NCBI GenBank assembly: GCA_009777485.1
Contig: WRLT01000002.1
Coordinates: forward strand, 177,968-241,967
Reading direction: 5' to 3'
DNA from: Bacillota bacterium
GTDB taxonomy: Bacteria > Bacillota > Clostridia > Christensenellales > Pumilibacteraceae
Length of the DNA stretch: 64,000 bases
The number at the start of each line of letters is the position of its first letter. Position 1 is the stretch's first letter. A program made the position numbers and the translations under genes. Of the stretch, positions 6,470 through 46,856 are shown piece after piece. The notes below the pieces were generated by a model. The model was given only the letters and a program-made list of their open reading frames with translations, was not told where the DNA came from and searched no databases.

Positions 6470-6640
6470 AAGTGATATTCGCAAGCGAATGATATTATTT
6501 TCGCAGAAAATAATGATATTTGCTTGCGCAAATGAAGGTTGGAAGGAAAAATATAATATCATTCGAGCAAAGCGAGAATATCATTACGAAGTAATATACT
6601 TCGTGCTTCGTTCATTGCCGTAGGCAATATCATTCATAAA
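6470..6640. repeat. About 170 bp imperfect long palindrome. It has three direct AATGATATT motifs followed by three inverted AATATCATT motifs. It may be MITE-like or iteron/operator-like.
   Basis: The motif occurs at about 6472, 6492 and 6517 in forward orientation and at about 6556, 6578 and 6627 in reverse orientation. Flanking GCGAA/TTCGC-type bases are also mirrored. It sits immediately 3' of tRNA-Ala at the start of the AT-rich island. Confidence 0.45.
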
Positions 6641-6684
6641 CATTTCAACTTGACTTCCCACTCATTTTCTGCTATCATAAACCC

Positions 6685-7032
6685 ATGAAAGAAGCCAACC
6701 CTCTTGTAGACCTTTCAAAGGCATTCGCCGTAGAAATCATAAACCTTTGCGATAACATAAAAGCAAAGGCAGCTTTGGTTAACCAACTTATCCGTAGCGG
6801 CACATCTATCGGTGCAAATATTCGTGAAGCACAATACGCACACGGAAAGAATGATTTTATCGCAAAACTAGAAATTGCGCTTAAAGAATGCTACGAAACA
6901 GAATATTGGCTTGAATTGCTTTTTGAAACAAAATCCATTGATGAAACCACTTTCAAAGACCTGCAACAAAAGGCAGGTGCAATCCGTAGAATGCTAATAG
7001 CGAGTTGTAAAACTGCAAAGGAGAATAGGTGA
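6685..7032 (+). CDS. Four-helix-bundle protein (the family called 23S rRNA intervening-sequence protein)
   Basis: About 115 aa with the recognisable pattern of this family (…IRSGTSIGANIREAQ…, …ECYETEYWLEL…). The family is frequent in mobile and defence islands. Confidence 0.6.
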   Translation: MKEANPLVDLSKAFAVEIINLCDNIKAKAALVNQLIRSGTSIGANIREAQYAHGKNDFIAKLEIALKECYETEYWLELLFETKSIDETTFKDLQQKAGAIRRMLIASCKTAKENR

Positions 7033-7580
7033 TGGGTTTATTTGGTTTATTCAAAAGAAAAAATAAAAAAACCACAACTCAACAAAGCAAACAAAAGCGT
7101 ATTATTATTGATGACGCTTTTATTGATGGGGGTTGGGGAATGGAAATCATAGAACCTCTATGGTTTGGTGTGGATATTTATAACTCTGCTAAGGAATATG
7201 AGGCTGACTTAGAGTCGTTTACACTTGCACAGCGATATGTTTTTGCGATTGAATGGTACAATGCGGAAGTGAATAATGGAGGACATAGTCAGTTTTATAC
7301 AAACTCCACAGGGATTGTTTGGGAAGATGCGATGAATGGATTTAAAGCTATCGGGGCAGATAAGCATTATGAGTTAATTAAGGAATCTGCCAAAAGAATG
7401 GGCGGCAACCCAAGTAAAACCAGAAATGAGCGCGAGGAAGAATATGAAAAGCACGACCCTGATTTTGAGGATTTAGATAATAAGTTTTATGAGTTGGAAA
7501 ACGAATTAGAGGACGCTATTAAAAAATATGTTCGCAGCAACAGAGAGTTATTCTACTTTGATGGATTTATAAAAATCTAA
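7029..7580 (+). CDS. DUF4375/DMP19-like protein (a possible DNA-mimic family), Lys-rich N-terminus
   Basis: It has an NNGGHSQFYTNS-type motif (compare the NGG..QFF core of DUF4375) and an acidic C-terminal half. Its ATGA start is coupled to the upstream gene. Confidence 0.35.
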   Translation: MMGLFGLFKRKNKKTTTQQSKQKRIIIDDAFIDGGWGMEIIEPLWFGVDIYNSAKEYEADLESFTLAQRYVFAIEWYNAEVNNGGHSQFYTNSTGIVWEDAMNGFKAIGADKHYELIKESAKRMGGNPSKTRNEREEEYEKHDPDFEDLDNKFYELENELEDAIKKYVRSNRELFYFDGFIKI

Positions 7581-7980
7581 CTTTTTATCCACTGCGTGTT
7601 GACCACAAAATAGCCGAGAAATAAAGGGTTTTGTGGGTCAAAATGACAATTCACTCACATTGTGAAAAATAAAAAAATAAAAGGAGTTTGAAAAATCAAA
7701 ACTGATGTTGAAACGAGCCGAAAGGTTCGTTTTTGTTTACAATTTGCGACCACCACGAAAGCCACCAAAACGGTAAGACAAAAGGTGGTGCGGCAGAGCG
7801 AGGGACAAGCCCTCTCGCTCCACCGCACGCACCCGCCTTTTTTTGCCCTTGTCGTTTTTTTGGTGTGCTTTTTGTCGTGGGTGTTTGCACGCAAACATCT
7901 TGGCGTTCTCTAAAATAATTTTGCTATACCACCCCAAAGGACTTGTCAAGTCCACTCTGTTTATGATATAAATATATAGA

Positions 7981-9837: not shown

Positions 9838-11222
9838 TGGCACAAAAGATAGTAATTACGGAAGAGTTTTTTAATTCATTAAAAAGTGGCAATAACGCAA
9901 CAATTTTGCGTGAGAAAGGTTTTTCTACACCACAATCATTTATCAATGAAATTATCGCCAAACTAAACAATGAGTTTAACTTTTTTGAAATAAATGGTTA
10001 TAGATTTCCGCTGACCGAAGAAGAAAAAGCCGATATAAGTATGTACAGTGCTTTTATTGACGGAGATATTTCGATATATGAAAAAGTTGTGGTTTTCTTT
10101 ACACCGATAGATGCAAAAGCAGGAAATGTAATTGTTGAACAAGGACTAATGCCAACGATATGCACAGAAATGGAAAAAGATATTGCATTCTTAATCAACC
10201 CACGCATTAAGAAAGTTGTTGTTTTGACTTCTAAAATTAACAATGAAAATATAATTTCTACTGATAGCAATTCGACACAACGAGATATAAATAGTTTGAA
10301 CTCATTAAACTTTGATGTTGTTTCTTTATTCAAAATTAAGAACTTATCAACAGATGTAAAGTTTAACTCACTCAATGAATATCTTGACTTATACTTGTTC
10401 TTACAAGCAAAAAACAAACATAATTCCCAATATAATTTATTGCCACTTGTGAAAAACACCTTATATGGTGATTATGAAGTTTCGCAATGGCAAGGACAAT
10501 TTCCTAAATCATTTTGTTTTAAGTTTTTGACTGCAATGCTTATAGGTGGAAATGACTACAAATACGACATATCACAAGCGGTTTCAAAGTTAAATGGCAA
10601 GAAAGATAGACAATTAACAAATCTTAAAAACTTTGTAGATTATGTAAATAACAATCAAATAAGGCAAACGGCATTTATCACACTGATAGATGACGATATT
10701 GTAGAGAGTGACGAAGAAATCAATAACGCAAATGATATACATAGAAAACCAGAGCAAGCATTTGATATAAACAACGGAAGAAAGAGATACAAAACTCAAA
10801 AGAAAGTTAGAGATATTGTTTTACAACAAGCAAATTATTTGTGTAATTGCCACGACTTAAAACACTTTTATTTTGAAGCGATGGACTTGAATAATTATGT
10901 TGAAGGACACCATATCGTTCCCATGAATAGACAAGAAGAATACTATTTTGGCAAAAATATAAACCTTGATATTCCACATAATATCGTTGCACTTTGCCCT
11001 AATTGTCATTCGCAAATACATCTTGGTAGCAGGCAGGCAAGATTAAAAATATTGAGTGAATTATTCGTGAGAAATAAATCGCAGTTAACCGCATTTGACA
11101 ATGATTTAAGTTTGGCTATTCTTGCGTCATTCTACAACATAGGGTTGGAGCAAGAAGAAGAAAATGATTGGCTCAAAAGGGCAACCGATATAGTTGCAAA
11201 AAAGCACAATAAACAAATATAG
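9838..11222 (+). CDS. HNH-family restriction endonuclease, the putative Type IIS R subunit, with an N-terminal recognition region and a C-terminal HNH nuclease
   Basis: The C-terminal motif is CNCHD…EGHHIVPMNRQ…NIVALCPNCHSQIH (a beta-beta-alpha-Me/HNH site with a Cys4 zinc site). Its start overlaps the methyltransferase stop (TAATG), with GGAGA upstream. The ORF-track start at 9822 is less likely. Confidence 0.65.
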
Positions 11223-11580
11223 ATTTTTTTGCTCTGGGGCAAGGTAGGGTTTCGGTTGGTAGGTCATATTTTTTTTCAAGTTTGGCAATTTGTTTCAACA
11301 TCATTTTACTATACTTGATATTTTCGTCTATTGCCCATTTCAAAAAATTTCGGTTCTCGGGAGATTGCGAAAAGGCAAAAACCATGGGTTCGTTTTGCAT
11401 AAATTCACGCACAATTTCACTCACACACAACTTAATATTTCTCTACTGTTTTCATTTTCAACTCAATTTAATTTATCCCTATTTTATTGAGTTTGGACAT
11501 GGACACGCAGTGGATAAAAAGTAAATCTAATTATTTTTTATTGACAATTAGAGTATTTAAACCTATAATAAAATTAACTT

Positions 11581-12114
11581 ATGAAGCAGATTGATAATAA
11601 AAAATCCAAAACTTTTTATGGAATGTATGCAAAATTAGCCGTAGTCCTTTGGGTTGTAGCTGCGATGCTTACGGCAGCAATTATTTTGGGGGTTTTTGTA
11701 GAGAATAATTATTTATTTTTGCTTATGCTGCTTGCGCCTCTTGTTTTTGTTACCATTGGAATTATTTTTTTTATTGATAGAATTTATATTGACGCCGAAA
11801 ATATCCGCATTGCGTTTTTAAAGAAAAAACAAACACACAAAATAATTGATTTAAAAGAAATTTATATTGATATAGATAGAGCCGGTTTGGCGTCAATATC
11901 TAAACTTGTGTTATGTTTTGAAAAAACACCGGATATAGCAAGAAAATCAATTTTTTCTTATATACAATATTGCAAAGAAAATCAAGTTTCATTTTGTGTA
12001 GTTGGGTACAATAAAAAATTATTACTATTGATTAAACATAGCTTTCAAGGCACATATATCCAACACGGTCAAAGCGTAGAGGGAAAAAGGTTGGAAAAGT
12101 TTTTAAAAAACTGA
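11581..12114 (+). CDS. Hypothetical membrane protein with two N-terminal TM helices
   Basis: ORF with hydrophobic segments (LAVVLWVVAAMLTAAIILGVFV, LLMLLAPLVFVTIGIIFFI). It is AT-rich and lies within the island. Confidence 0.4.
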   Translation: MKQIDNKKSKTFYGMYAKLAVVLWVVAAMLTAAIILGVFVENNYLFLLMLLAPLVFVTIGIIFFIDRIYIDAENIRIAFLKKKQTHKIIDLKEIYIDIDRAGLASISKLVLCFEKTPDIARKSIFSYIQYCKENQVSFCVVGYNKKLLLLIKHSFQGTYIQHGQSVEGKRLEKFLKN

Positions 12115-12163
12115 ATTAAAGCGGTAATGCGCTCCGCCAAAATATTCAAGTGATTATTCTGTT

Positions 12164-12814
12164 ATGAAAGAAAATGATAAAACTATACTGATTAAAAGGT
12201 CTACTTACAGAATGTTTCCCGACAAGGAAAGCGGGCTTATTTATTGCTCTGGCAGGGGCTTTTTTATAGTTGATACGGATAGCGGAAAAATGCTAAAAAC
12301 GTTTAAAACCATACCGTATGCCAATCAGCTTATTTGGGACGAAGAAAAAAAATACAGTACGGTAAAAAGCACCGTTGGTGAATTTGCAGTTTATCGCTAT
12401 GGTGATTTTACAGAACCTATATGGAGATTTAAGCTTAAAAAGGTGCAAAATACGGATGACGATTTTTTTGCGGCAAACAGCAAAATCTACGGACGCGCCC
12501 ATGCTTATGATGCCCGTCAAGAGAAATATCTTAATAAATATGTTATTATTGACATCGAAAAACAAGCAATCACGCAGTGTTCGGAAAGCGAAATTCCAAG
12601 CGAAATGCTTGTAAAAATTCAAAAAAATGCTAACAAAAAGCAAGCAAAATGGCTTGCGGGGAAAGCATCCTCCGCTACTAATTTATCAGGAGACGACATT
12701 CCCGAAAAATACGAAACAATCCCTTATGTGTCTTGCTACTTAGAAACGGAAAAGTATGAATACGTAGGTTCGTGGGAATGCTTGCGCATCATCCCTAAAA
12801 ATCAATATTTTTAA
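12164..12814 (+). CDS. Hypothetical protein
   Basis: 216-aa ORF between the two R-M systems. I recognise no motif. Confidence 0.35.
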   Translation: MKENDKTILIKRSTYRMFPDKESGLIYCSGRGFFIVDTDSGKMLKTFKTIPYANQLIWDEEKKYSTVKSTVGEFAVYRYGDFTEPIWRFKLKKVQNTDDDFFAANSKIYGRAHAYDARQEKYLNKYVIIDIEKQAITQCSESEIPSEMLVKIQKNANKKQAKWLAGKASSATNLSGDDIPEKYETIPYVSCYLETEKYEYVGSWECLRIIPKNQYF

Positions 12815-12887
12815 GAACCCCTATGGAAACATTTGATTTTTCTCTCTAAAAATGCTATAATTAAAAGCAGTATAAGGAGTGGTGCTA

Positions 12888-13865
12888 ATGAAAATTGTTT
12901 CTTTATTTGCAGGTGCAGGCGGTTTAGATTGCGGATTTGAAAAGGCTGGGTTTTCTACCATTTGGGCAAATGAATATGATAAGACGATTTGGGCGACTTA
13001 TGAGCTAAATTTTCCAAACGCTACGTTAGATAGGCGCAGTATCACGGACATTGACCCGAGCGATATTCCCGATTGTGATGGTATTATAGGCGGTCCGCCT
13101 TGCCAAAGTTGGAGCGAGGCAGGTGCAGGTCGCGGTATTAACGACAATAGAGGTAAACTCTTTTATGATTACATACGAATACTAAAAGAAAAACAACCTA
13201 AATTTTTTGTATGCGAAAATGTTGGCGGTATATTGCACCCAAAACACGCCGACAGTTTCAACGATTTTCTAAAACAATTTGAAAATTCAGGATATATTCT
13301 TTCTTGGAAATTGGTTGATGCGAATGATTATGATGTACCGCAAACACGCTTACGCGTTTTTATTATCGGTTATAGAAAAGACCTTAAAAAGCAATTTGTT
13401 TTTCCTGCACAAAAAGAATATAAGCCCGTTTTAAAAGATGCCATTTATGATTTAAGGCAAGCACAGCCTGCAAAAAAACAAAATAAGTCTTGGGGACTTG
13501 AACTACCTATGCCAAATCACGAATATATGCACGGTGGTTTCTCGACGATTTTTATGTCAAGAAATCGTGTCCGCTCTTGGGACGAACCCTCTTTTACTAT
13601 TCAAGCAGGCGGCAGACACGCACCAATCCACCCGCAAGCTCCTAAAATGGTTTTTGTGGAACAGAATGTCCGCATATTCGTAAAAGGCAAAGAGGATTTG
13701 TATCGTCGTTTATCTGTTAGAGAGTGTGCAAGAATACAGACATTCCCTGATAATTTTATTTTTATCTATAATGATATTGCCAACGGTTACAAAATGATTG
13801 GCAATGCTGTTCCCGTAAACTTAGCAAAAGCAATCGCAACTCAAATTATGGGGGACTTAAAATAA
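12888..13865 (+). CDS. DNA (cytosine-5)-methyltransferase, M.HaeIII-like
   Basis: Motif I is LFAGAGGLDCGF. The PCQ catalytic motif is GGPPCQSWSEAG. ENV is present. The C-terminus is GNAVPVNLA. The overall sequence closely resembles my recollection of M.HaeIII (…PNHEY…STIFMSRNRVR.W.EP.FT.QA.GR…HPQAP…LYRRL.VRECAR.Q.FPD.FIF.Y…GYKMIGNAVPVNLA). The ATG at 12888 has AGGAGT 7 nt upstream. The listed GTG at 12879 is less likely. Confidence 0.85.
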   Translation: MKIVSLFAGAGGLDCGFEKAGFSTIWANEYDKTIWATYELNFPNATLDRRSITDIDPSDIPDCDGIIGGPPCQSWSEAGAGRGINDNRGKLFYDYIRILKEKQPKFFVCENVGGILHPKHADSFNDFLKQFENSGYILSWKLVDANDYDVPQTRLRVFIIGYRKDLKKQFVFPAQKEYKPVLKDAIYDLRQAQPAKKQNKSWGLELPMPNHEYMHGGFSTIFMSRNRVRSWDEPSFTIQAGGRHAPIHPQAPKMVFVEQNVRIFVKGKEDLYRRLSVRECARIQTFPDNFIFIYNDIANGYKMIGNAVPVNLAKAIATQIMGDLK

Positions 13866-14821
13866 TGCCGTCAGCCAACAACTCAACGAAAAAGGGTAAA
13901 GCCTATGAATATGCTTGCGTGTTAGCGGTACAAGAAATTGTTTCGCCTATCCGTGCCATAGAGATTGTAGACAATTCAAGTTTACGCATTGCAAGACAAC
14001 GCTGGGGCGAAATTATTCAATCGGAGCAATCTGAAATGCTACGCTCTGCCGCCGCAGGAATTAAAACCATTATCAAAATGGAGCCGAAAATTATCGAGGA
14101 CGGCAACGACAAATTGACCGTTTTTTTGCAACCAGACAATGTGGCAAAACTTGGTGATGTGCGTGATATGCTGATTATTCGGCGTTCTATTCAATGGGAA
14201 ATAGGCGTTTCGGTCAAGCACAACCATTCTGCCTTAAAGCATTCTAGGCTTTCAACAAAATTAGACTTTGGCAACGTTTGGCTTGGTGTAAAATGCGCAC
14301 AAGGTTATTTTGACGAAATAAAGCCCATTTTTGATACCCTAACCGCAGAAAAAGCAAAAGGTACAAAATGGAGCGAATTAACCGCCAAAGACGATACCGT
14401 GTATGTGCCTATTCTTAATGCGTTTAAAAAGGAATTATTAAGATTAAATACGGCAGAAAATCAGGTTACGCAGGGTTTGGTTAAATATCTTATCGGCAGT
14501 AGCGGCAAGGATTATTATAAACTTATACATCGCAAAAACTTTACAACCGTTATGCCGTTTAACCTTTACGGTAGTTTGAACACATCGGCAACAAATACAG
14601 ACCCCGAAATTGATATTCCCGCGATAGAATTACCTACAAGAATGATTGACTTTTCATTTAAAGACCATTCAAAAAACACCCTTATTTTAACCATGAACAA
14701 CGGCTGGTCGATTTCGTTTAGAATACACAATGCAAGCACAATCGTAGAGCCGAGTTTGAAGTTTGATATTCAATTACAAAGCAAGCCAGAAAATATGTTT
14801 TACATGGATGTAAAATGGTAG
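13865..14821 (+). CDS. Putative Type II restriction endonuclease partnered with the C5-methyltransferase
   Basis: Its start overlaps the methyltransferase stop (TAATAATG). At 318 aa it has no matches I can recall, as is typical for restriction enzymes. The assignment rests on position and operon arrangement. Confidence 0.5.
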   Translation: MPSANNSTKKGKAYEYACVLAVQEIVSPIRAIEIVDNSSLRIARQRWGEIIQSEQSEMLRSAAAGIKTIIKMEPKIIEDGNDKLTVFLQPDNVAKLGDVRDMLIIRRSIQWEIGVSVKHNHSALKHSRLSTKLDFGNVWLGVKCAQGYFDEIKPIFDTLTAEKAKGTKWSELTAKDDTVYVPILNAFKKELLRLNTAENQVTQGLVKYLIGSSGKDYYKLIHRKNFTTVMPFNLYGSLNTSATNTDPEIDIPAIELPTRMIDFSFKDHSKNTLILTMNNGWSISFRIHNASTIVEPSLKFDIQLQSKPENMFYMDVKW

Positions 14822-26067: not shown

Positions 26068-26487
26068 ATGAAAAAAATGGTTAAATGGTTGTTGCCTTGC
26101 ATGCTGATTATGGCGGTTGCCGCATTAGCCGCTTGCGGGCCGTCCACGCCCGAAAAGGCGTATGACAAACTCAAAGCCGACATTGCGGCGGCGGGCTATA
26201 CCGTTACCGAATTTACCGCCGAACAAATCGAAGCGGCTAATTTTCCTGTCAAGGCGGATTCGGGCTTTAAAGCGGTTAAAGACGGGGAAACCTTTGTGTT
26301 AATTTTCTTTAACGACAGCTTAGAAGGCAAAACTTTGGATTTATCCGGCGGCTTTGCCTCACTTGGCGCAAACGGAGGATATGCGGGAAGCCACGGAAGG
26401 TTTGCTTATAGCAGTTCTACCCCCGACGAGGTCGAAGCGGGAAGAATTTTCAGCAAAATCATTAACAAAAACAACAGCGGTCAATAA
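26068..26487 (+). CDS. Small lipoprotein
   Basis: Signal peptide with lipobox LAAC (MKKMVKWLLPCMLIMAVAALAACG). Confidence 0.55.
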   Translation: MKKMVKWLLPCMLIMAVAALAACGPSTPEKAYDKLKADIAAAGYTVTEFTAEQIEAANFPVKADSGFKAVKDGETFVLIFFNDSLEGKTLDLSGGFASLGANGGYAGSHGRFAYSSSTPDEVEAGRIFSKIINKNNSGQ

Positions 26488-27092
26488 GCCGTTTTGCTTA
26501 CGCTTAATAGCTGCATAAACTTTTTTTTGTAGATGTCCTTAATAATAAAACCGTTTTCTGTTGCAAGCCGTTTTAGTTTTTTGTGTGTAAATAATTTATT
26601 ATCGCCCGCCTTTAAAAGCGGCGATATAATGTAATCAATAAAGGGTTTTAGCAAAAAGAATTTGGGTTCGCCTATAATAAGCGTACCGTTTGGCTTTAAT
26701 ATTCGATGCGCTTGTGTAAAAAAGCTTTGCGGATTGTTTAGGTGGTGTAATACGCAGCAAATAATTACGGTATCAAAATAGTTGTCCTCAAAGGGGATTT
26801 GTTCGCCGTTTGAAACTTTAAAATCAATGCCGTCATACCGCTTGCGGCATTCGGCAATCATCTGCGGCGATATATCAATTCCGTATGCGTGTATGTCTGC
26901 TTTTTGTTTTAGCGCATATATCAAGCTGCCGTTGCCGCACCCGACATCAAGCACCCTGTCGCCGTCGTTTAGCAAAACGGTATCTAGTATTTTTTGCTTG
27001 AATTTCGCTGTAAATTTTCCGTCAAAAGAGTTGTCGTAATCGCTTGCGATACGGTTGTACTTTTGTATGGATTGAAGTTCGTGTTTGTTCAT
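26481..27092 (-). CDS. Class I SAM-dependent methyltransferase
   Basis: AdoMet motif VLDVGCGNG and the Methyltransf_11-like region DTVIICCVLHHL. Confidence 0.75.
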   Translation of the reverse strand: MNKHELQSIQKYNRIASDYDNSFDGKFTAKFKQKILDTVLLNDGDRVLDVGCGNGSLIYALKQKADIHAYGIDISPQMIAECRKRYDGIDFKVSNGEQIPFEDNYFDTVIICCVLHHLNNPQSFFTQAHRILKPNGTLIIGEPKFFLLKPFIDYIISPLLKAGDNKLFTHKKLKRLATENGFIIKDIYKKKFMQLLSVSKTAY

Positions 27093-27093
27093 T

Positions 27094-27810
27094 TTATTTT
27101 CCCTTTTTTCTCATGCGCCGTACATTTCTGTTCATGGAGTGCCGCACAAAGTTGCGGAACATAAAGGTTTTAAAAGGTTTTGTGTTTTGTTTGTGCTTTA
27201 AAAACAATTCGTCCGGGGTGTCAAAAATGCCTAAGTCTTGCGTGATAGCGTCTTTTTGTATATAGGTGTCGTTTTCGTTCCATTCAATCGGCGGATTTTG
27301 TAAATCGGGTGTTGCCGCCGCATACGCATAAAACGGGCACTTGTAATCTTTAAACTTATTTTGCAATTGCGTAAGATAGGGTACATCTAAAATAAAGCCC
27401 TCTAAATTTAACCATTTTTCTTTATAAAAAATTTCAACCCATGAGTGCAGAATTTCTTTGGGTGCTTGCTGATAAAAAAAGCCTTTAATTGCCCCTTTCT
27501 GCATTTCTTTATCTACCATAAAACCGTGAATACGGCACGGAATACCCGTTGCGCGCAATAAGGCCATTAGCAAGATGCCTTTTGTGTTGCACTGCCCGTA
27601 GCCGTCCTTTAACACCTTTGAGGCTTTAATACGGTCGCTGATATTATAGCCAAAAGCAATCTCATCGCGCACAAAATTATAAACGGCGCGTATGCGTTCG
27701 GTATCGTTTAATTGTTTCCATCCTTTATTTTGGATTAAAGAAACAATTTTTTGGTGGGTGTAATTTAACAGCGGGGTAGCAATCTTTAAGTTTTCTAGTA
27801 AGCTTTCCAT
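27094..27810 (-). CDS. Transglutaminase-like cysteine protease superfamily protein
   Basis: Catalytic Cys region GYGQCNTKGILLMALLRATGIPCRIHGF. Confidence 0.55.
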   Translation of the reverse strand: MESLLENLKIATPLLNYTHQKIVSLIQNKGWKQLNDTERIRAVYNFVRDEIAFGYNISDRIKASKVLKDGYGQCNTKGILLMALLRATGIPCRIHGFMVDKEMQKGAIKGFFYQQAPKEILHSWVEIFYKEKWLNLEGFILDVPYLTQLQNKFKDYKCPFYAYAAATPDLQNPPIEWNENDTYIQKDAITQDLGIFDTPDELFLKHKQNTKPFKTFMFRNFVRHSMNRNVRRMRKKGK

Positions 27811-27913
27811 ACATAAAGTATACCATTTTTTACGCGCACAGTCAAAAAAAGCAGTATATTTTACATACTACTTTTAGTTGTATTTAGGCAAAGGCAAGCC
27901 AAATTGTTTTCAA

Positions 27914-29332
27914 TCATTTTATTATTTTGAGTTGTGATAATTGTTCACGACACTCATTAGGACAATCAAAAACCATATCGTCAGTAAGCCAACATACAAG
28001 TATATGGCGGTCATTTAATAAATAATCTATTATCCATTTTTGTACAGGCTTTTCTTGAAGTACTATACATAATTTTGCTTGAAAGAGTTTGTAATTAAAA
28101 CGATATTCATATAATTGTGCTATGGCTTTTCGTATTTGACTTAGTGCGTTTTGTTTATTATTTGACTTAACCTCAAAAATAAAATCTTGACCGTTTGCAT
28201 TACATAAAAGGTCAATATAAATATTGTTTTTAATTATGTAATCTTTTTGACTTAAAAGGGTTGCAAGGTTTTTTAAAATTTGTTCGTGGTCTTTGTTTGC
28301 TTTCTCTCTGCGAACCATAATTTCATAGGGGTTCGTTTTATTTCCGCTTGAAATAAAAGCGCGGGTTTCGTTCGCTTGAAAATCACGCATTTCGGGAAAA
28401 GTTTGCTCTGCATTTAGATTTATTTCAACTAATGCAGTAGGTTGTTCGCTATCTATTTCATAACTTTCCAAATCAAAAGTTTTTAATGCTTTTATAAGTT
28501 CTGGTCTTAATGTCCAAATAAAAACAGTTCTTTTTTCGACATATCTACCAATAAACGGAATGTTCCAACATAGTTTTTTCTTAACTTGCCTAATTTGAAC
28601 ATCGATGCCCGTAATATGAATAACTCTTTTTGCAAAACGTTCTAGACTTAAATTAATAGTTCCAACAGCTACATTATGTGCCTTAGCAATTTTTCCGCAG
28701 CTATTCTCATAATTTTCGCAGCCAAGCAAGTGTACAAGTGTCGGCATAAATGATTTTTTTAAAGTTAATTCATTTTCTATTACTTTTATCCATTGTTCAA
28801 CAGTTTTAACACGGGGCATATTTAGGTCTGCCGATTCATCGTCGATAGGAAAATCATGCGACTTTTGCACGCCGTTCAAATGGAGTTCAGGCTTAACAAT
28901 CATTGTCCTATTTGCAATTAGTGTATTTATTCTTTGAAAGCATTCGATGGATGTATCTTTAATTTTTTGCGGACGGCTAAATCCTTTAAAATCTTTTACG
29001 ATTGTCTTAATATCACTTGCCTCAATAAGCGGTTCAAATACTTTTATGCTATTCGTTTTTAAAAGATAACACTGCGATTCGTTGATTGTTTCTTTTACAT
29101 TTTCCAAAAAAACTGCACTTGCAATAATTCTACCCCTATATTGAAATAAAAATAAATCGTCTTTTTTAGAATTAAAAAAACGATTACAATAATACTTGCA
29201 AGCCCCGTCATTATTTCGTTTTATTAAAATATCTTGAAAAAAGTTCTTTTGAACGTCCAAATGGCTTTCGCCAACACCTTGCAAATTGCTTTCGTGCATT
29301 GCGACTATATAAATTTCAGGCACAGCTTTCAT
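27914..29332 (-). CDS. AT-rich hypothetical protein with a C-terminal PD-(D/E)xK nuclease-like motif. It is a candidate solitary or Type IV-like restriction or defence nuclease.
   Basis: It is a 472-aa ORF at about 33% GC, against about 50% in its neighbours. The C-terminus is YIDLLCNANGQDFIFEVKSNN…QIRKAIAQLYEY, an aspartate strand followed by an E-V-K strand, as in restriction-endonuclease-fold enzymes. The N-terminal 150 aa are uncharacterised. Confidence 0.4.
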   Translation of the reverse strand: MKAVPEIYIVAMHESNLQGVGESHLDVQKNFFQDILIKRNNDGACKYYCNRFFNSKKDDLFLFQYRGRIIASAVFLENVKETINESQCYLLKTNSIKVFEPLIEASDIKTIVKDFKGFSRPQKIKDTSIECFQRINTLIANRTMIVKPELHLNGVQKSHDFPIDDESADLNMPRVKTVEQWIKVIENELTLKKSFMPTLVHLLGCENYENSCGKIAKAHNVAVGTINLSLERFAKRVIHITGIDVQIRQVKKKLCWNIPFIGRYVEKRTVFIWTLRPELIKALKTFDLESYEIDSEQPTALVEINLNAEQTFPEMRDFQANETRAFISSGNKTNPYEIMVRREKANKDHEQILKNLATLLSQKDYIIKNNIYIDLLCNANGQDFIFEVKSNNKQNALSQIRKAIAQLYEYRFNYKLFQAKLCIVLQEKPVQKWIIDYLLNDRHILVCWLTDDMVFDCPNECREQLSQLKIIK

Positions 29333-29458
29333 TATAAAATTATATCAAAAAATGTCGGAAAAAGTCAAATCATTTGTTGAAACTATATAAAAAAATGAGT
29401 GCCGTTTTAATAGCACTCATTTTGCAGTTGTTTATATAGGGGGGGCAGGGAATTTGGG

Positions 29459-38178: not shown

Positions 38179-38739
38179 ATGAAAAAAACGTTAATAAATA
38201 TTTTGGCGATAGGGGTGATTTTAATTATGGGATTAGGAGGATGCAGTGCAAAAGACCCGAACTTTGGTCAAATAAAAGGCTTAGAAAACGCTGCGTTTGC
38301 CGCGCGTTTTTATAAAAGAGATTTTTTTATAGAGCCTGAACAAATAGACGTAAGTGAGGCGTTTGTATCCGTAATCAACAATAAAGCCGAGTTAAGTATA
38401 TGGAACGAAACCGAACAGCAATCGGGACTTCTATATAACGATATTGACGAATGGAACAATTTTTATTTAGAACATATAGATATCTACGATAATGATTTTT
38501 TTGAAAAGAATCAACTGGTGTTGATTGTGTTTTTAGACGGACTTGCATTTCATAATTGTAGCGTAAATGAAATTCGTTTTCAAGATAATGTATTATATGT
38601 GAACTTTGAAACAGCCTTAGTACGCAAGGGATGTCAAAGTTACGGTGTTTTTCCAGCCATGCCGCCCGTCAGACTTGCCGTTATAGAAATTACAAAAATA
38701 ACCAACAACTTGAAAGTAGAATTTAGTTTTTTCAAGTAG
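38179..38739 (+). CDS. Lipoprotein, paralog family member 1
   Basis: Lipobox LGGC (MKKTLINILAIGVILIMGLGGCSA). It is preceded by the conserved promoter and leader. Confidence 0.6.
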   Translation: MKKTLINILAIGVILIMGLGGCSAKDPNFGQIKGLENAAFAARFYKRDFFIEPEQIDVSEAFVSVINNKAELSIWNETEQQSGLLYNDIDEWNNFYLEHIDIYDNDFFEKNQLVLIVFLDGLAFHNCSVNEIRFQDNVLYVNFETALVRKGCQSYGVFPAMPPVRLAVIEITKITNNLKVEFSFFK

Positions 38740-38755
38740 TAAAAATTTTGATTGA

Positions 38756-38800
38756 AAGGTTGACGCTTAAAAAATAAATTGATATAATAAATATAAGATT
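38756..38800 (+). promoter_or_regulatory. Fourth copy of the TTGACGCTTAAA…GATATAATAAAT promoter, with a different leader, upstream of 38845
   Basis: GGTTGACGCTTAAAAAATAAATTGATATAATAAAT. Confidence 0.55.
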
Positions 38801-38844
38801 GTTTGCAACTTAAATCTACTAATTTCTGTTGAGGAGGTTTTTAA

Positions 38845-39462
38845 ATGCTTTGCAAGGACTGTAAACAAATGAATGATACAGACGCAGAAGTTTGCATTTA
38901 TTGCGAAAAGCGTTTAAAAACAAACAGCTTTACCGAAAGAAGCAACACGGAAATAAGTAAAAATGAAAATCATACGGTATGGGGAATAGCGGAAAACACA
39001 CAAAGCAAAAAGAATCTTATTCTAAAAGTAATGATTCTTTTAAGCCCAGCCATTATTTTTACAATTGGTCAATTTGTACAGCTTTTTATACGGCTTGCCG
39101 ATTCTTATCCCTCAAGCTATATAAGGCAGAATGTTTTAATTGGGTTCTTTGTAAGTTTTATTTATGAAGTATTTCTTATTATTTTATTGCCGCTGACGGT
39201 ATGTGCGATATTGTATATATTCGGAAACAAAAAATATAACCGCCGAATAATCCTATTTTTTCAAGTACTGCTGGTGCTGTCATTTACCGCAGCACTTGTT
39301 TATCCAACGCTATCTCTTATTATAGCAGGAGCGTATAATATAGAGGGCTTTGTTGCAATATCTGTTTATTTATTGGTAGTTATCTTTTTTATGATTGACA
39401 CAGCTGCGTTATTAAAAAACTCCAAAAAACACAAAAGGAGATACAAAATGAAAAAAAGTTAG
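38845..39462 (+). CDS. Membrane protein with an N-terminal zinc-ribbon (CKDC…CIYC) and 4-5 TM helices
   Basis: MLCKDCKQMNDTDAEVCIYCEK followed by hydrophobic helices. Confidence 0.55.
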   Translation: MLCKDCKQMNDTDAEVCIYCEKRLKTNSFTERSNTEISKNENHTVWGIAENTQSKKNLILKVMILLSPAIIFTIGQFVQLFIRLADSYPSSYIRQNVLIGFFVSFIYEVFLIILLPLTVCAILYIFGNKKYNRRIILFFQVLLVLSFTAALVYPTLSLIIAGAYNIEGFVAISVYLLVVIFFMIDTAALLKNSKKHKRRYKMKKS

Positions 39463-39660
39463 ATTATAGGACTGCCGTATTATTTGCGGCGTTTTTATAT
39501 CGTCTTAGGTGAAACAAAACATAATTATTTGTGAGGAATTTGTAGAATTTGGTTGACGCTTAAATAGGTAAAATGATATAATAAATTAGATAGTAAGAAT
39601 AAAACAAAAAAGAGGAGAGCTTTTGTGTTTGGCGAAAGGAGAATAGAAAAAACTATAAAA
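39449..39660 (+). repeat. About 210 bp repeat unit (cassette junction, promoter and leader), copy 2
   Basis: ATGAAAAAAAGTTAGATTATAGGACTGCCGTATTATTTGCGGCG…TTGTAGAATTTGGTTGACGCTTAAATAGGTAAAATGATATAATAAAT…GAGCTTTTGTGTTTGGCGAAAGGAGAATAGAAAAA. It is near-identical to 40144..40348. Confidence 0.65.
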
Positions 39661-40119
39661 AAAACAATAACAAAAATTTTAACAATGGGGATGATTTTAA
39701 TTATGGGATTAGGAATTTTTGCGGGGTGTGGCAACAATAAAAGGCATCCGAATTCAGACCCTGACATTGAAACAGAATTAGAAATTAAGATAAGGCAGAA
39801 CTATATTAAGAAGCTTCCAAAAAATTCAAGGGTTAAAATGAATAATCTTTGGGTTAGCAAATATTATGGCACATTTGATGAAAGTGTTGTGCTAATATTT
39901 CAAACCAGCCTATCGGAGTCTTCTATTTTGCCTGATGGTGGTCTTGGAAATATTACTAAAGAAACAATTGCAGGCTTTGAGTTTATTTTTGGCACATCAT
40001 CCTGGATTAATGTTTGGTACAATGGAAATTTTTACAGCTTACTTGATGCTTACAATGATGGACTGTTAACATCAGACGACATTGAAAGTATTTGGTTACA
40101 ACGACAATCTAAAAACTAA
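39625..40119 (+). CDS. Lipoprotein, paralog family member 2 (start ambiguous)
   Basis: Signal peptide …ILTMGMILIMGLGIFAGCGNN. The ATG used by member 1 is ATA here (…ACTATAAAAAAAAC). The frame opens at GTG 39625, or at an internal ATG at about 39682. Confidence 0.5.
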   Translation: MFGERRIEKTIKKTITKILTMGMILIMGLGIFAGCGNNKRHPNSDPDIETELEIKIRQNYIKKLPKNSRVKMNNLWVSKYYGTFDESVVLIFQTSLSESSILPDGGLGNITKETIAGFEFIFGTSSWINVWYNGNFYSLLDAYNDGLLTSDDIESIWLQRQSKN

Positions 40120-41504: not shown

Positions 41505-44500
41505 ATGAAAATAGCAAGCAAAAGTAAGAAAAAGATGGTAGGTATATTTTTAGTTTTGTGCCTTGCGGCAGCAGCAAGCCTAATCATTTTCATGCGGCCA
41601 AGTTCAACGGTCGCTCATGCATCCACAGAACTAGAGCAAAAACACATTGAATGGACAAATTCAGACATTCTGATGGACGGCGAAGGTACGATACAAAACT
41701 ATCGCACAAATCGCTATACAAACGGTGTTTCAGTTACGTCATCAGCAATGACGGTAACTGGCAATGATCCAATTATACATATAATTCCCGTGGAAGAGTT
41801 CTCAACTTTAGGGTTGAGAACATTTATGGGCGAAGAGTATGGTTGGATAATCGATGTGTTCAATGATTCATGGGGCATCCGTCGGGCGCTTATCCAAGTA
41901 ATAGATATTACTGTTAAATGGGAAAAAGTTTTAGACTACGAGTTTATGATTTCACCTTTGTTTGAGTACGAATATGCGGTAATTCCTGCAGGCACTGGAC
42001 AGGTGCGAGTAAGGCACTGCAATGTAGAGGGTCGTGTAGAGGGAGATTATGTATATACCGCGACTAATTTGCGAAACAAAACTCTAAGCTACACCAACAA
42101 CACGGGTGCGCAAAGAGTTGTTGCAATGCCTTTAATACATACACCTACAAGATTTACAGAGCGAATATCGTTTTGGGGATCAAGGAAATATAATATTCAA
42201 AACTTTTCTGTTGCAGCAGAGTTAGCTAACAGATTCGCTCCCAATCCTTGGGATACAAATTACGACTTAGACACGGATTTAGGTGCGTTCTTTTGTTTTT
42301 CGGAGTTATTATACAAGAATACGGGCATTAATGTCAGCCCCTATGATCCATGGCATACAGTAAAATTTGGTGCGTCAGTTGCGACTATTGGGTTTGATGG
42401 ACTCTTTCAATATATTGATTTATTAGTTGAGTTTTATAATTTAGTGGCAAATTCAGTAGAACCAAATGAGAAAACGTATAACGCAGTACAATATGGGGCT
42501 AGTGAATTAAGAGCTACTTATTTTGGTGATCGCTTGCAACAAAAAAGACCCCCTGATTTGCCTCTGCATGAAGATCCTGGCTATGGTAAATTGATTAAAC
42601 TTGCTTCGGTTGATGTTTTTGCAGATTTAAACAGACCTTTAAGACCACAACCATTGGATAGATATAATTCACACGGTGCAGACCACAAGGGAGGTAGATT
42701 TGGCATAGTGTGGAATGCGGAGAACTCGTCGCAATTAGTAACGACATATCAGTTTACTGTTAAAGATATGACTTTTGGTCCCACATTAAAACTTGTAAAT
42801 GGTGTTCGATATAAAAACATTGGTCTTGGTGCTGATTTGATTACTCAAAATAATGTTGTTACAGGATTTGTACCTCCCCCTAATTTCAATGGTATTTTAG
42901 AAATTCCTAATGGAGCTACAGCTATTGCTTCAAATGCTTTTGCCAACCAAGCCCAACTAACTCAAATCTTGATACCTGAATCCGTAACTACAATAGGAAA
43001 TAACGCTTTCCACGCCAACACATTGGTGAACTGGCAAGGGAACTATTCGTTTAGAGGATCACAATTTTTAGGCATTTTAGGTGGGCAGACAAGCTTTTCT
43101 TTGCCATCGACCATTGCAGGTATAAATATTACTTCAATAGCTACCGATGCTTTCTCTAACCAAACCCAGCTTTCTTACATTACCATTCCTCCAAGCATAA
43201 CCAGTATTAGCAGTTTTGCGTTTCAAGGTTGCACTGGTTTAACCTCTATTATTATACCTAAAAGTGTAACCAGTATCGGGCAAAATGCGTTTAATGGATG
43301 CCATAACTTAACCATTTTTGCCGAAGCTTCAAGTAAGCCGAATGGTTGGGATAATTTATGGAATCCGCATAATCAAACCGTAGTGTGGAGTTTTAACTCT
43401 GCCTTGCCTTTTGCAATTACAGACGGCGCGTATTATGTACTGGAAGGAGGCGAAACGGTTTTAAGACGGTATATAGGTAACGAAAGTCAATTTTCTTTAC
43501 CCGATTCTGTTGTAATTGACGGAGTTAGCCGTCCCGTGACAAGCATTATGCGGGGTGCGTTTGAGGGCGCGAATAACTTAGAGTTAATCGAATTGCCGTT
43601 TATAGGTGAAAGAGCAGACGGAACGGGTGCAACGCATTTTGGTTGGATATTCGGCTCAACGCACGCTGTTGTGCAAGGCTACCATATTCCGCAATCGCTA
43701 AAAACGGTGGAAATTGTAAATAGCGGTAATAGTATCCGAATCGAAGATGATGCGTTTCACGGTTGCGCAAATATTTGGTATATTCATATACCTGCTAATG
43801 TTACCTATATTTCTGATAAAGTTTATTTTAGTGCGTTTGAGGGCTGCTCAAGCTTAATTAAAATTATTGTTAACGGCGGAAATTTGCACTATGCAAGCAC
43901 TGATGACGGAATATTATATGATATAGAGAAAACCCGTATTATTTATGTGCCGCATGGTATTAGCGGAGATATTGAGTTGCCGTCCTCGTTAATCAGTATT
44001 TCAGAGCGGGCGTTTGAAAATCGCGTAGACATTACAAGCATTGTTATTCCCGAAAGCGTTACGCATATCGGATTAAATGCGTTTAGTAATACGGTTGTTT
44101 TGGAAATAGAGGATGACGTAATTTATGCGGGAAACTGGGCAGTAGGATTTTTGCACAAGAATGGTTATTATGACTCAAACGGTAATTTTATGTATGAAGT
44201 TACGGTTTCGCTAAGACCTGGTACTGTGGGGATTGCTGACAGGGCATTTAGTAGTGCTAATTCTTTAACAAGTATCCATCTACCTGATAGCTTAAAATAT
44301 ATCGGAAATGGGGCTTTTTGGTTTGCAACGAAATTAGCTGAAATAGACATCCCCGAAGGTGTGGTAAGTATCGGCGAGGAAGCGTTTTTGCGCTGTGATT
44401 CTTTGCGCAGTGTTAAGCTACCCGACAGCTTAACGTATCTTGGCTATCGTGCATTTTTTAACTGCGGTCGCCTTTTGGAAATAAATTTACCAATTGGCAT

Positions 44501-46856
44501 AGAACATGTAAAAGCGGGAGCATTTTTGGGTTGTTCGAACTTGGCGAAGGTCATTTTTTCTAGTGACTTAAGAGAAATTGATGCTGGAGCATTTGCAATG
44601 ATATCTGAATTGACAAGCATAGTTATACCTAATTCTGTGGAGCGTATTGGACAAGGTGCATTTCACAGTAGTTTTATAGAAACTATAAGTTTACCGTTTG
44701 TAGGTGAAAGAGCAGACGGAATGGGTGCTAGGAATTTTGATTATATATTTCGTGAGAGCGAGTTATATTCTAGTTTTTGGTTAAGACTTGATAGCGCAAC
44801 TATAATGGGTGGAGATATTTCATCGAATGCATTTAATGGTTTAGATGAGCTAACAAATGTTGTCCTTTCTAGTGGCGTAGTGAACGTAGAAGCAAACGCA
44901 TTTCAAGATTGCACCAATTTAACGATTTATGTCGAAGAGGAAAGTCAACCGCTTAATTGGGCAACTAATTGGAATTCTGGTCGCCCCGTTATATACGGTA
45001 CTACATTGTCGGTGGACACATTATATATTGAATCAATTATAAAGACTACGGATATGCATAATGGGCATGTAATTTCTGCGCCTTCACGTGCAGACCATGT
45101 TTTTAGCGGCTGGAATACGGCGACGGATGGAAGCGGCACCAACTATTTATTTACAACTCAATTGGATTACAACGCTATACCAAACGGAACTAAATTATAT
45201 ACTATGTGGGTGCATGTTTTGGATATTATTAATGTGATAAGTAATGATGAATTGATAATTGTTTGCGATAACACTTTGCCTAAATTTGAGGCAGCAGAGT
45301 TTACAATACGCGGAGTAGAGTCTTTGGCGTTTTTTTATGGCAATTCATTTGACAATACTATTTCTGAGTTTAATTTATTAGATGTGCTTCATCTTGCGCC
45401 CGAAACTTATGTGCTTGATACGTTGATTATTAAATATAGACTTAAATTTGAAGAAAGACCTTGGACAAAAAATTTTGAAAAAGAAGTATGTGCTTTATTT
45501 GGCGGTAAATTAATGCTTGACGGAATAACATATGAAATTATAAATAGTGAGCGGCACTTAAGAAATATAAGGGCAGAGGGAAATTATATTTTAACTCATA
45601 ATATAAATATCGATTCTAATTGGACACCGCTTTCAATAAATTTCAGTGGCCTATTTAATGGGAATGGGAATAGTATCACGGCTGCTAATTTAATTGTAAT
45701 ATCGGATAATTTATTTGCCAATAATAACGGAGAGATTATAAATCTAGATGACCCCTATGCTGGGCTTGATATAGTAGGCAATACCGTTACAGGCTACTTC
45801 GGCACCTCTGCCGCAATCGCTATCCCCGAAGAGGTTGACGGAATAGCGGTAACGTCTATCGCCGCAGGCGCATTCGCCGACAATACAAGCCTAACCAGCG
45901 TTTCCATTCCGCACAGCGTAACCTCTATCGGTTTAGGCGCGTTTAGCGGCACGGAGAGCCTAGAAAACCTAAGCATTCCGTTTAGCGGGCAAAACCGCAA
46001 CGGCGGCAATAACACGCACTTCGGCTACATATTCGGCGCGCAAAACATGAACGGGCAAGCCTCCTTTATTCCGCAATCGCTAAAAACGGTGCGCATAGAC
46101 GGCTTAAACGGTACGCAAATCGCCAACAACGCGTTTAACGGCATAGGCGGCGTAGAAACCGTAATCATCGCAGACGGCGTAACCACAATCGGCAGCGACG
46201 CGTTCCGCAACAATTCCGCGCTTACCTTTATAGAAATTGCCTCTACCGTTTCCAACATCGCCAACGCATTCGGCAACAGCCCCAACGCGGCGGTCAAGTG
46301 GCATTTTAACGCCGGCGCGGCGGTTAATAATTTCCGCATGAACCTAACGGAGGTTGTCATTCCCGACACCGTTACGGCACTCCCGAACAACGCCTTCCGC
46401 GACTGCGTGAACCTAGTTAGCGTAACAATCCCCGCCAGCGTAACGTCTATCGGCAACAGCGCGTTTCAAGGTTGTGTAAGCCTAACCGAAATCGCACTGC
46501 CCGCAAGTGTTACGGAAATAGGGGCGCACGCGTTTAACGGCGCAACAAGCTTAACCGACATCATTATTCCGCACGGCGTAACCACCATCCGCGACAACAC
46601 CTTTAGCGGTTGCAGCGCACTAACTAGCATTGTCATTCCCGCCAGCGTAACGCAAATCCAAAGCGACGCGTTCCGCAACTGCAACGCCTTAACTACCGTC
46701 TACTACGGCGGCGAAAGCGCGGCGCAGTTTAACGCCATAAACACAGGCAACAACGCACAGGTTGTAAACGCAACGCGCTACTATTATTCCGAAACCGAAC
46801 CCGCAACACAAGGAAACTTTTGGCACTTTGCAGACGGCGTTCCCACCGCGTGGTAA
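41505..46856 (+). CDS. Giant cell-surface protein of 1783 aa with BspA-type leucine-rich repeats
   Basis: Signal peptide. It has dozens of repeats of the form [IL]xIPxSVTxIGxxAFxxCxxLTxI. The C-terminal block YYGGESAAQFNAINTGNNAQVVNATRYYYSETEPATQGNFWHFADGVPTAW is paralogous to the C-terminus of the 2..2902 product. Confidence 0.7.
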   Translation: MKIASKSKKKMVGIFLVLCLAAAASLIIFMRPSSTVAHASTELEQKHIEWTNSDILMDGEGTIQNYRTNRYTNGVSVTSSAMTVTGNDPIIHIIPVEEFSTLGLRTFMGEEYGWIIDVFNDSWGIRRALIQVIDITVKWEKVLDYEFMISPLFEYEYAVIPAGTGQVRVRHCNVEGRVEGDYVYTATNLRNKTLSYTNNTGAQRVVAMPLIHTPTRFTERISFWGSRKYNIQNFSVAAELANRFAPNPWDTNYDLDTDLGAFFCFSELLYKNTGINVSPYDPWHTVKFGASVATIGFDGLFQYIDLLVEFYNLVANSVEPNEKTYNAVQYGASELRATYFGDRLQQKRPPDLPLHEDPGYGKLIKLASVDVFADLNRPLRPQPLDRYNSHGADHKGGRFGIVWNAENSSQLVTTYQFTVKDMTFGPTLKLVNGVRYKNIGLGADLITQNNVVTGFVPPPNFNGILEIPNGATAIASNAFANQAQLTQILIPESVTTIGNNAFHANTLVNWQGNYSFRGSQFLGILGGQTSFSLPSTIAGINITSIATDAFSNQTQLSYITIPPSITSISSFAFQGCTGLTSIIIPKSVTSIGQNAFNGCHNLTIFAEASSKPNGWDNLWNPHNQTVVWSFNSALPFAITDGAYYVLEGGETVLRRYIGNESQFSLPDSVVIDGVSRPVTSIMRGAFEGANNLELIELPFIGERADGTGATHFGWIFGSTHAVVQGYHIPQSLKTVEIVNSGNSIRIEDDAFHGCANIWYIHIPANVTYISDKVYFSAFEGCSSLIKIIVNGGNLHYASTDDGILYDIEKTRIIYVPHGISGDIELPSSLISISERAFENRVDITSIVIPESVTHIGLNAFSNTVVLEIEDDVIYAGNWAVGFLHKNGYYDSNGNFMYEVTVSLRPGTVGIADRAFSSANSLTSIHLPDSLKYIGNGAFWFATKLAEIDIPEGVVSIGEEAFLRCDSLRSVKLPDSLTYLGYRAFFNCGRLLEINLPIGIEHVKAGAFLGCSNLAKVIFSSDLREIDAGAFAMISELTSIVIPNSVERIGQGAFHSSFIETISLPFVGERADGMGARNFDYIFRESELYSSFWLRLDSATIMGGDISSNAFNGLDELTNVVLSSGVVNVEANAFQDCTNLTIYVEEESQPLNWATNWNSGRPVIYGTTLSVDTLYIESIIKTTDMHNGHVISAPSRADHVFSGWNTATDGSGTNYLFTTQLDYNAIPNGTKLYTMWVHVLDIINVISNDELIIVCDNTLPKFEAAEFTIRGVESLAFFYGNSFDNTISEFNLLDVLHLAPETYVLDTLIIKYRLKFEERPWTKNFEKEVCALFGGKLMLDGITYEIINSERHLRNIRAEGNYILTHNINIDSNWTPLSINFSGLFNGNGNSITAANLIVISDNLFANNNGEIINLDDPYAGLDIVGNTVTGYFGTSAAIAIPEEVDGIAVTSIAAGAFADNTSLTSVSIPHSVTSIGLGAFSGTESLENLSIPFSGQNRNGGNNTHFGYIFGAQNMNGQASFIPQSLKTVRIDGLNGTQIANNAFNGIGGVETVIIADGVTTIGSDAFRNNSALTFIEIASTVSNIANAFGNSPNAAVKWHFNAGAAVNNFRMNLTEVVIPDTVTALPNNAFRDCVNLVSVTIPASVTSIGNSAFQGCVSLTEIALPASVTEIGAHAFNGATSLTDIIIPHGVTTIRDNTFSGCSALTSIVIPASVTQIQSDAFRNCNALTTVYYGGESAAQFNAINTGNNAQVVNATRYYYSETEPATQGNFWHFADGVPTAW

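Follow-up and report, generated by a model that had tools for sequence, protein, structure and literature searches.

The gene examined here lies at 27914..29332 on the minus strand of a 64,000-nucleotide (nt) stretch of contig WRLT01000002.1 from a Bacillota bacterium (assembly GCA_009777485.1), hereafter the window, and probably encodes a functional, stand-alone endonuclease of the Type IV-like, modification-dependent kind. The open reading frame (ORF) is complete, begins with ATG and specifies 472 amino acids (aa) followed by a stop codon. Its product comprises three modules: a PUA-like module A (aa ~1–145), a winged-helix module B (aa ~166–290) and a PD-(D/E)xK module C (aa ~335–472). We are highly confident in placing the protein among the PD-(D/E)xK nucleases and in assigning it a PUA-like plus winged-helix N-terminus. 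The wider reading, that this plan makes a working Type IV-like enzyme, is held with moderate confidence and draws on the nuclease fold, the conserved catalytic residues, the Type IV partners of modules A and B in other proteins, and the lack of an adjacent DNA methyltransferase. An earlier note on this DNA had considered a Type IV-like or stand-alone defense enzyme plausible, a suggestion that the present computational analysis supports, with dependence on modification as its inferred component.

Module C (aa 335–472; 27917..28330, minus strand) is assigned by fold and by 54–62% identity to its relatives as a PD-(D/E)xK core resembling AHJR and the C-terminal domain of BpuJI. The earlier note had described a 472-aa ORF with an IDLL…EVKS-type strand motif followed by a helix, and had taken this for a restriction-endonuclease-fold core. 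The motif is present as ID374...E387-V-K389 within aa 366–392 (IIKNNIYIDLLCNANGQDFIFEVKSNN), and the catalytic signature D374 ... E387-V-K389 (28166..28213, minus strand) is placed by conservation and by its position in the model. The AlphaFold model of this half (mean predicted local distance difference test (pLDDT) score of 87.6, 90–98 in the core) orders its elements as α-β-β-β-α-β-α-β, and the secondary structure in model numbering (helix 50–77, strands 81–84, 90–94 and 97–104, helix 111–128, strand 135–140) gives the α-βββ-α-β topology of the PD-(D/E)xK core. Residue D374 opens β2, and E387 and K389 sit on β3 of the same hairpin, which is followed by a helix; the hairpin register suggests that D374 faces E387 and that the three residues cluster in space. 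All significant Foldseek neighbors of the module are PD-(D/E)xK nucleases, including AF2093, XisH, the R2 restriction-like endonuclease, the cleavage domain of the Type IIS enzyme PaqCI and Hjc, as well as BspD6I, Cdn1, LmuA and EcoO109I. The prediction thus returned a nuclease fold, and not the non-nuclease fold that the earlier note had named as evidence against its proposal.

Conservation agrees with the model. The residues D374, E387 and K389 are conserved across more than 140 homologues, with E387 and K389 invariant and D374 retained in at least 90%. In an alignment of 33 diverse relatives, E387, K389, N395, Q399, R401, Q406–R411, D441, R442 and W448 are invariant, and A345, N346, H349 and D374 are nearly so. 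Judged from these alignments and the predicted structure, the D...EVK signature goes well beyond a short motif met by chance, and metal-dependent phosphodiester cleavage is the candidate activity of module C.

Sequence comparison indicates that this nuclease module is borrowed from a genuine Type II restriction–modification (R-M) family. When 5.8 billion proteins were searched, the sole full-length match was the protein itself, a singleton architecture from one metagenomic population; the remaining 142 matches, mostly of ~505 aa, cover the C-terminal ~180 residues only, at 54–62% identity. These ~505-aa relatives (P0002–P0102) are linked to 5-methylcytosine (m5C) methyltransferases, in cassettes whose genes run m5C DNA methyltransferase, endonuclease, Vsr and which occur in two unrelated contexts, one chromosomal (P0028) and the other a mobilizable element (P0050). 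Several have BpuJI_N-like, sequence-reading N-termini (PF11564 in P0004, P0022, P0042 and P0081), whereas our protein has the PUA-like and winged-helix modules instead, and neither an m5C methyltransferase partner nor Vsr. The linker joining module B to the nuclease (aa 291–334; 28331..28462, minus strand; pLDDT 51–79 at model residues 1–49) is kept within the ~505-aa family, where it contains an FPEMRxFQ motif; the alignment to P0004 starts at aa 293. Homologues match the PDDEXK_9 model around its threshold (7.9e-6 to 0.07), and one (P0025) matches the Pfam AHJR-like model weakly (E = 0.033). Among the more distant proteins with module C, P0117 stands alone, and P0108, which has a weak EVE match, adjoins a PLD-helicase and Eco57I-type methyltransferase system. 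The element that carries P0050 (loci L005–L008) also bears genes for large serine recombinases and for MobA/MobL, TraG-like and TnpV/TnpW proteins. Its endonuclease was seen with the m5C methyltransferase and Vsr on 233 contigs, so this cassette is widely disseminated.

The N-terminal half, which the earlier note had left unassigned and proposed as a possible modification reader, was modeled separately from the C-terminal half; a mixed full-length MAFFT alignment was discarded, as it misplaced fragments of module B onto module C. The model of aa 1–292 is confident (mean pLDDT 89), with disorder only in the linker between modules A and B (aa 146–165; 28838..28897, minus strand; pLDDT < 50 at residues 150–162). 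Module A (aa 1–145; 28898..29332, minus strand), a putative modified-base reader of the ASCH/YTH/EVE/McrB-N-like kind, is PUA-like by Foldseek comparison with ZmASCH (E 6e-4) and VcaM4I (E 5e-3); EVE is more distant in fold than are ASCH and YTH. As modeled, it belongs to the PUA-like fold and not to a described sequence family. Module B (aa 166–290; 28463..28837, minus strand) is a confident winged helix by structure comparison and a putative DNA-binding or sensor domain of an uncharacterized family, whose conserved residues are W181, W256 (in WNIPF) and the stretch W273-x-L-R-P-E278-L-x-x-A282. At the level of fold, the suggestion of a modification reader therefore stands, reinforced by the Type IV partners of these modules in other proteins.

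An exhaustive HMMER search with aa 1–292 found at least 134 representative clusters (P0121–P0252; E ≤ 0.001, 50%-identity library) for modules A and B taken together, which make up two sequence families. The two modules are independently mobile, occurring each alone or together in A-B or B-A order, within proteins of 100–1100 aa. Their partners are largely effectors of restriction. The 56 A-containing proteins include 21 with HNH, 11 with HNH_2 and six with NOV_C, alongside AAA_5, GmrSD_C, DUF3427 and DUF4357; in the 79 B-containing proteins, HNH (18), AAA_5 (17), NOV_C (15), HNH_2 (9) and Mrr_N (3) are accompanied by rarer EVE (2), MrcB_N (2), HARE-HTH (2) and GmrSD (1) domains. STAND-type domains also occur among the fusion partners. 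The partner HNH domains are McrA-type (6ghc, 4e-12) and the partner AAA domains are McrB-type GTPases (6hz4, 1e-28). The PADLOC label mREase_IV, for methyl-directed restriction enzymes of Type IV, was assigned to 16 of the 79 and 14 of the 56 relatives, others being labeled PD-T4-1, and PADLOC recognizes these relatives solely through their other effector domains.

Individual relatives show the three-part plan with other nucleases. The nearest A+B relative, P0121 (387 aa), carries HNH after the two modules; P0132, P0128 and P0145 combine A and B with NOV_C, P0122 with DUF3427 and NOV_C, and P0218 joins module B to a distant relative of module C. No methyltransferase gene was found in the 6 kb that flank P0122 on each side. 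A further protein, P0110, matches over the N-terminal 290 residues and differs at its C-terminus; DUF3427 was considered for that C-terminus and set aside, Pfam giving no confirmation. Profile searches of the PDB that started from the alignments of the three modules returned the partner domains only (McrA HNH, McrB GTPase) and never the modules, and did not retrieve DpnI. When phage genomes were searched by tblastn with the N-terminal half, the matches were marginal only (best 1e-2, under an HNH gene). Whole-protein searches were similarly sparse, with sub-threshold HSDR_N (E = 0.13) and HTH_70 matches in Pfam, nothing useful in NCBIfam or PHROGs, and no match by sequence search in the PDB. 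The protein is best described as parts of known kinds put together in a new way, in a three-module architecture that is unique. It shows two features of Type IV enzymes: a nuclease fused, at fold level, to a modification reader, and the lack of a cognate DNA methyltransferase.

From these parts a mechanism can be proposed. Modules A and B would together recognize foreign DNA bearing a base modification that is absent from the host's own repertoire, the winged helix binding the duplex and the PUA-like module flipping out and inspecting the modified base. This binding would lift repression of the C-terminal nuclease, which, like the C-terminal domain of BpuJI, would probably act as a dimer with little sequence specificity and may cut near the modified site rather than inside it. 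Unmodified host DNA would be spared under this proposal, so that no protective methyltransferase would be needed. A bolder version, which we consider possible and on balance unlikely, is that A+B form an undescribed two-part reader of a mark outside the range of known modification-dependent enzymes, with N6-methyladenine (m6A) outside GATC, N4-methylcytosine or a hypermodified phage base as candidates, and that the gene records a natural, recent conversion from a methylation-sensitive Type II to a methylation-dependent Type IV enzyme by exchange of the recognition half only.

The gene stands out from its surroundings in composition. The earlier note had put it at ~33% guanine-plus-cytosine (GC) content in a 50% neighborhood, which is about right: its GC is 0.316, with 0.237 at third codon positions (GC3), against 0.48–0.49 (GC3 0.51–0.56) in the flanking genes. 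The anomaly is strong and not unique, as the window averages 0.438, 8.5% of its 1419-bp windows have GC ≤ 0.33, and other low-GC islands lie at ~7.0–14.8 kb and 38.2–40.1 kb; such patches are not rare. The low-GC stretch of ~26481–29400 takes in the gene and two downstream genes on the same strand. A scan of the island edges found no convincing mobile-element scars, flanking repeats, tRNA or integrase, so the horizontal acquisition proposed in the earlier note is suggested by composition and finds no further trace at the borders. An empty-site test through the flanking DegV gene yielded a sole relative at 33% identity, too distant for comparison. The protein is identical to FWH03_03450 of an NCBI metagenome-assembled genome, and three assemblies (NCBI, ENA, JGI) carry the region at 100% identity across 21 kb; they probably share the same reads and so back the assembly, not recurrence as independent occurrences.

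A promoter-like site, TTGACT-18-TATAAT with an extended –10 TG (29339..29368, minus strand; 11 of 12 matches in a scan), precedes the ORF. Because its –10 hexamer ends 6 nt ahead of the ATG and no Shine-Dalgarno sequence is present, the mRNA may be leaderless. The upstream DegV gene ends in a predicted intrinsic terminator (29392..29423, minus strand; a 12-pair stem and then a T run, by scan), which sets the gene apart from upstream transcription. Directly downstream are a transglutaminase-like gene (27094–27810, minus strand) and, 1 nt further on, a gene for a 203-aa Methyltransf_11/UbiE-type class I methyltransferase (26481–27092, minus strand), both at GC 0.39; the 3′ end of the latter overlaps a convergent 139-aa gene (26068–26487) by 7 nt. 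The scanner called no terminator between our gene and this pair, with which it may be co-transcribed. A functional link was considered and rejected: the pair differs in GC (0.39 versus 0.32) and has a promoter-like site of its own, and no such pairing was seen near relatives; we therefore treat the pair as unrelated neighbors. The UbiE-type enzyme, which is not a DNA methyltransferase, matches PADLOC mad2 (1e-25) in its generic S-adenosylmethionine-binding region only. No DNA methyltransferase thus lies beside the gene, in agreement with the earlier note, and the island contains no cognate one such as a Type II R-M locus would have; the nearest DNA methyltransferases in the window are 14–20 kb away, each with its own nuclease gene.

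Those distant methyltransferases belong to a low-GC (0.30–0.39) R-M island at 6343–14821, directly downstream of tRNA-Ala (6343–6418). It encodes a DMP19-like DNA-mimic protein (7029–7580), a tandem two-domain D12 N6-adenine methyltransferase (7981–9837) that matches T4 Dam over the full length of its C-terminal half (4e-33), an adjoining 466-aa HNH protein (9822–11222), and an m5C methyltransferase (12879–13865) that adjoins an R.HaeIII-family endonuclease gene (13865–14821; 1e-113). At the level of genes, the two methyltransferases support the statement of the earlier note that m5C and m6A marks are made by this genome. A Type IV enzyme tolerated by this host must ignore the host marks: GG(m5C)C, presumably, and the site at which the tandem enzyme makes m6A.

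Avoidance of restriction sites bears on the same question. Only nine GATC sites occur in the 64 kb, compared with ~240 expected from base composition (Markov observed/expected ratio (O/E) of 0.07), and the three low-GC islands (7029–14821, 26481–29400 and 38179–40119) contain none, against ~40 expected. As these islands are presumably foreign and share the host's GATC avoidance, their donor pool would face the same GATC-directed restriction. If the Dam-family enzyme methylates GATC, a reader of G6mATC would still meet host targets, which argues mildly against this specificity; if the enzyme spares GATC, the host would be nearly invisible to such a reader. Overall, a G6mATC specificity is disfavored. 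Six of the nine sites cluster in 1.3 kb (41766–43057) inside a 1783-aa ORF (41505–46856, GC 0.42). Other sites are depleted in the window: CCGG (O/E 0.13), GGCC (0.37), CCWGG (nine sites), GAGAC (0.13), GGACC (0.27), CTGCAG (0.10), GGTACC (0.11), GGCGCC (0.16), CCGCGG (0.18), CTATAG (0 versus 24 expected) and TCGCGA (0 versus 17 expected), whereas GGATG is not avoided. These counts suggest that restriction by many different specificities weighs heavily on the lineage. The third low-GC patch (38179–40119, GC 0.33–0.35) holds three small ORFs, one with a weak phage-holin match (E = 0.0025), and may be a prophage remnant.

Several observations weigh against a working modification-dependent enzyme. 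The sensor assignments of modules A and B stand at the level of predicted fold only: the Pfam models of the PUA superfamily (ASCH PF04266, EVE PF01878, YTH and SRA) match neither the whole protein nor module A alone at E ≤ 1, module B matches no Pfam model at all, and the winged helix is a generic fold best matched here by transcription factors. Comparison with PADLOC-DB v2, which the earlier note had recommended, failed to identify the protein, none of its defense-protein hidden Markov models (HMMs) matching at E ≤ 1. No homology was detected to HHPV4I, a Type IV enzyme of similar plan considered below: hhalign with the A/B profile gave a probability of 6%, confined to the HNH part of the relatives, and BLASTP no match. 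The PUA-like domain is dispensable in HHPV4I (PMC10101028), so that its presence is no proof of function. Moreover, the host encodes a HaeIII-like m5C and a Dam-family m6A methyltransferase in the window, and some specificities of the enzyme would therefore be self-toxic. Lastly, as a single protein of one metagenomic population shows the complete architecture, a non-functional recent chimera is conceivable.

This last possibility is one form of a non-defense explanation, in which the gene is either a functionless chimera or a housekeeping structure-specific nuclease that acts in repair or resembles a Holliday-junction resolvase. The singleton architecture, the absence of a match to any defense-system model and of defense genes among the immediate neighbors (DegV, transglutaminase-like and UbiE-type) would fit such a gene, as would the label 'Holliday junction resolvase' given by JGI to some homologues and the presence of Hjc among the structural matches. 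We nevertheless judge it very unlikely, since the nearest relatives of module C are restriction enzymes and not resolvases, the foreign composition (GC3 0.237) is ill-suited to a housekeeping gene, and the ORF is intact, has a strong promoter of its own and keeps the family-invariant residues in all three modules. An alternative placing the enzyme within defense is a nuclease that is RNA-directed or activated by a signal, as in abortive infection, with the PUA-like domain binding modified RNA or a free modified nucleotide and thereby switching the nuclease on. Among the closest structural matches of module A are ASCH and YTH domains, whose targets are mostly RNA or nucleotides; stand-alone copies of module A exist, and a PUA-Cal-HAD defense system triggered by free m6-dAMP has been reported (PMC12871103). 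Here, though, module A shares its chain with a duplex-binding winged helix and with a nuclease module used on DNA in R-M cassettes, its partners elsewhere are the DNA-restriction effectors McrA HNH, McrB and GmrSD, and no RNA-related domains or neighbors were seen; on this evidence, direct action on modified DNA appears the better account and the signal- or RNA-based one unlikely.

The origin of module C in a true Type II family raises a further alternative, namely a conventional, methylation-sensitive Type IIS-like enzyme in which a specific unmodified sequence is read, as by the N-terminal domain of BpuJI, through the winged helix alone or jointly with the PUA-like domain, and whose protecting methyltransferase is encoded elsewhere in the genome. 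Winged helices are classic sequence readers, the genome strongly avoids many restriction sites, and the window has two DNA methyltransferases 14–20 kb away. Both of these, however, already adjoin a nuclease partner of their own, the HNH protein and the R.HaeIII-family protein, and an unprotected Type II enzyme gained by horizontal transfer would be lethal. The PUA-like fold points to base flipping and not to sequence reading, and modules A and B pair in other proteins with Type IV effectors of the McrA, McrB and GmrSD types in the absence of neighboring methyltransferases. A sequence-reading enzyme of this kind is consequently improbable, and the stand-alone, modification-dependent endonuclease is the reading that we retain.

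Modification-dependent endonucleases serve both as phage-defense genes and as practical tools for mapping DNA modification. Two candidate sensor families, one PUA-like and one winged-helix and both lacking a Pfam model, recur in McrA-, McrB-, GmrSD-, NOV_C- and HNH-type enzymes. In addition, a cleavage domain from a Type II family linked to m5C methyltransferases is here re-used behind a Type IV-style sensor, which constitutes direct evidence of module exchange between restriction strategies; modular shuffling of this sort among restriction enzymes is expected by specialists. Should the specificity prove new, the enzyme or its isolated A/B domains could become a reagent, whereas a reader of a common mark such as 5-methylcytosine (5mC) would add one more member to a crowded class. 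If true, the two-part reader with recent conversion would yield a new epigenetic reagent and also illustrate clearly how Type II and Type IV strategies interconvert, here through a swap of the recognition half.

Modification-dependent endonucleases that fuse a PUA-superfamily domain to a nuclease are an established class (PMC6765204, PMC7897488), against which the present protein can be placed. It has no sequence-level relationship to the EVE-HNH enzymes VcaM4I and TspA15I, from which it differs in its added winged helix and its other nuclease family. MspJI-type enzymes, which are SRA-like–PD-(D/E)xK modification-dependent endonucleases, likewise differ by the extra winged helix and the nuclease family. 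The closest plan is that of HhiV4I/HHPV4I and HtuIII, G6mATC-dependent Type IV endonucleases with a PUA-wH-HNH arrangement (wH, winged helix), in which reading falls to the winged helix and the PUA-like domain can be dispensed with (PMC10101028, PMC11037411). There as here, a single chain of ~380–500 aa presents PUA-superfamily, winged-helix and nuclease domains in the same order and needs no methyltransferase partner, and the nearest A+B relative, P0121, even carries HNH as those enzymes do; the nuclease is HNH there and PD-(D/E)xK in our protein. Descent from a G6mATC reader was considered and dropped, tests of homology to HHPV4I (taken from KY264020 ORF6) and to the winged helix of DpnI (sequence validated against PDB 4esj) both being negative. 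For DpnI, hhalign with the A/B profile gave a probability of 0.2%, and the recognition-helix motif shared by DpnI and HHPV4I, NNHI[KR]xKIRQQLQ (DpnI K229/R231/Q235), is absent from our protein. Given no detectable homology, the G6mATC specificity cannot be transferred; moreover, only ~10% of winged-helix fusions carry the GATC/6mA motif according to the authors of PMC11037411. The protein thus shares the plan of HhiV4I, while sequence comparison detects no membership of its family.

Two further enzymes resemble it in other respects. In YenY4I, which restricts DNA containing 5mC or 5-hydroxymethylcytosine, a PUA-like domain is followed by DUF3427 and PD-(D/E)XK (Lutz et al. 2019, PMC6765204). 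This too is a stand-alone gene that stacks two putative sensors before a C-terminal PD-(D/E)xK nuclease, and the A+B relative P0122 contains DUF3427 and NOV_C as YenY4I does. The second sensor of YenY4I is DUF3427 and its nuclease is of the DUF3883/NOV_C kind, in contrast to the winged helix and the nuclease resembling the BpuJI C-terminal domain/AHJR kind found here. In BpuJI, a Type IIS enzyme, the N-terminal domain reads CCCGT, and cleavage falls to an AHJR-type C-terminal domain, which is dimeric, cuts non-specifically and stays repressed as long as the N-terminal domain is not bound to DNA; its catalytic residues YD348...E367VK369 were verified by mutagenesis (PMC1874659). Our protein has the same signature in ID374...E387VK389, and by analogy the BpuJI arrangement offers the best available mechanistic model for how its putative sensors might control the nuclease.

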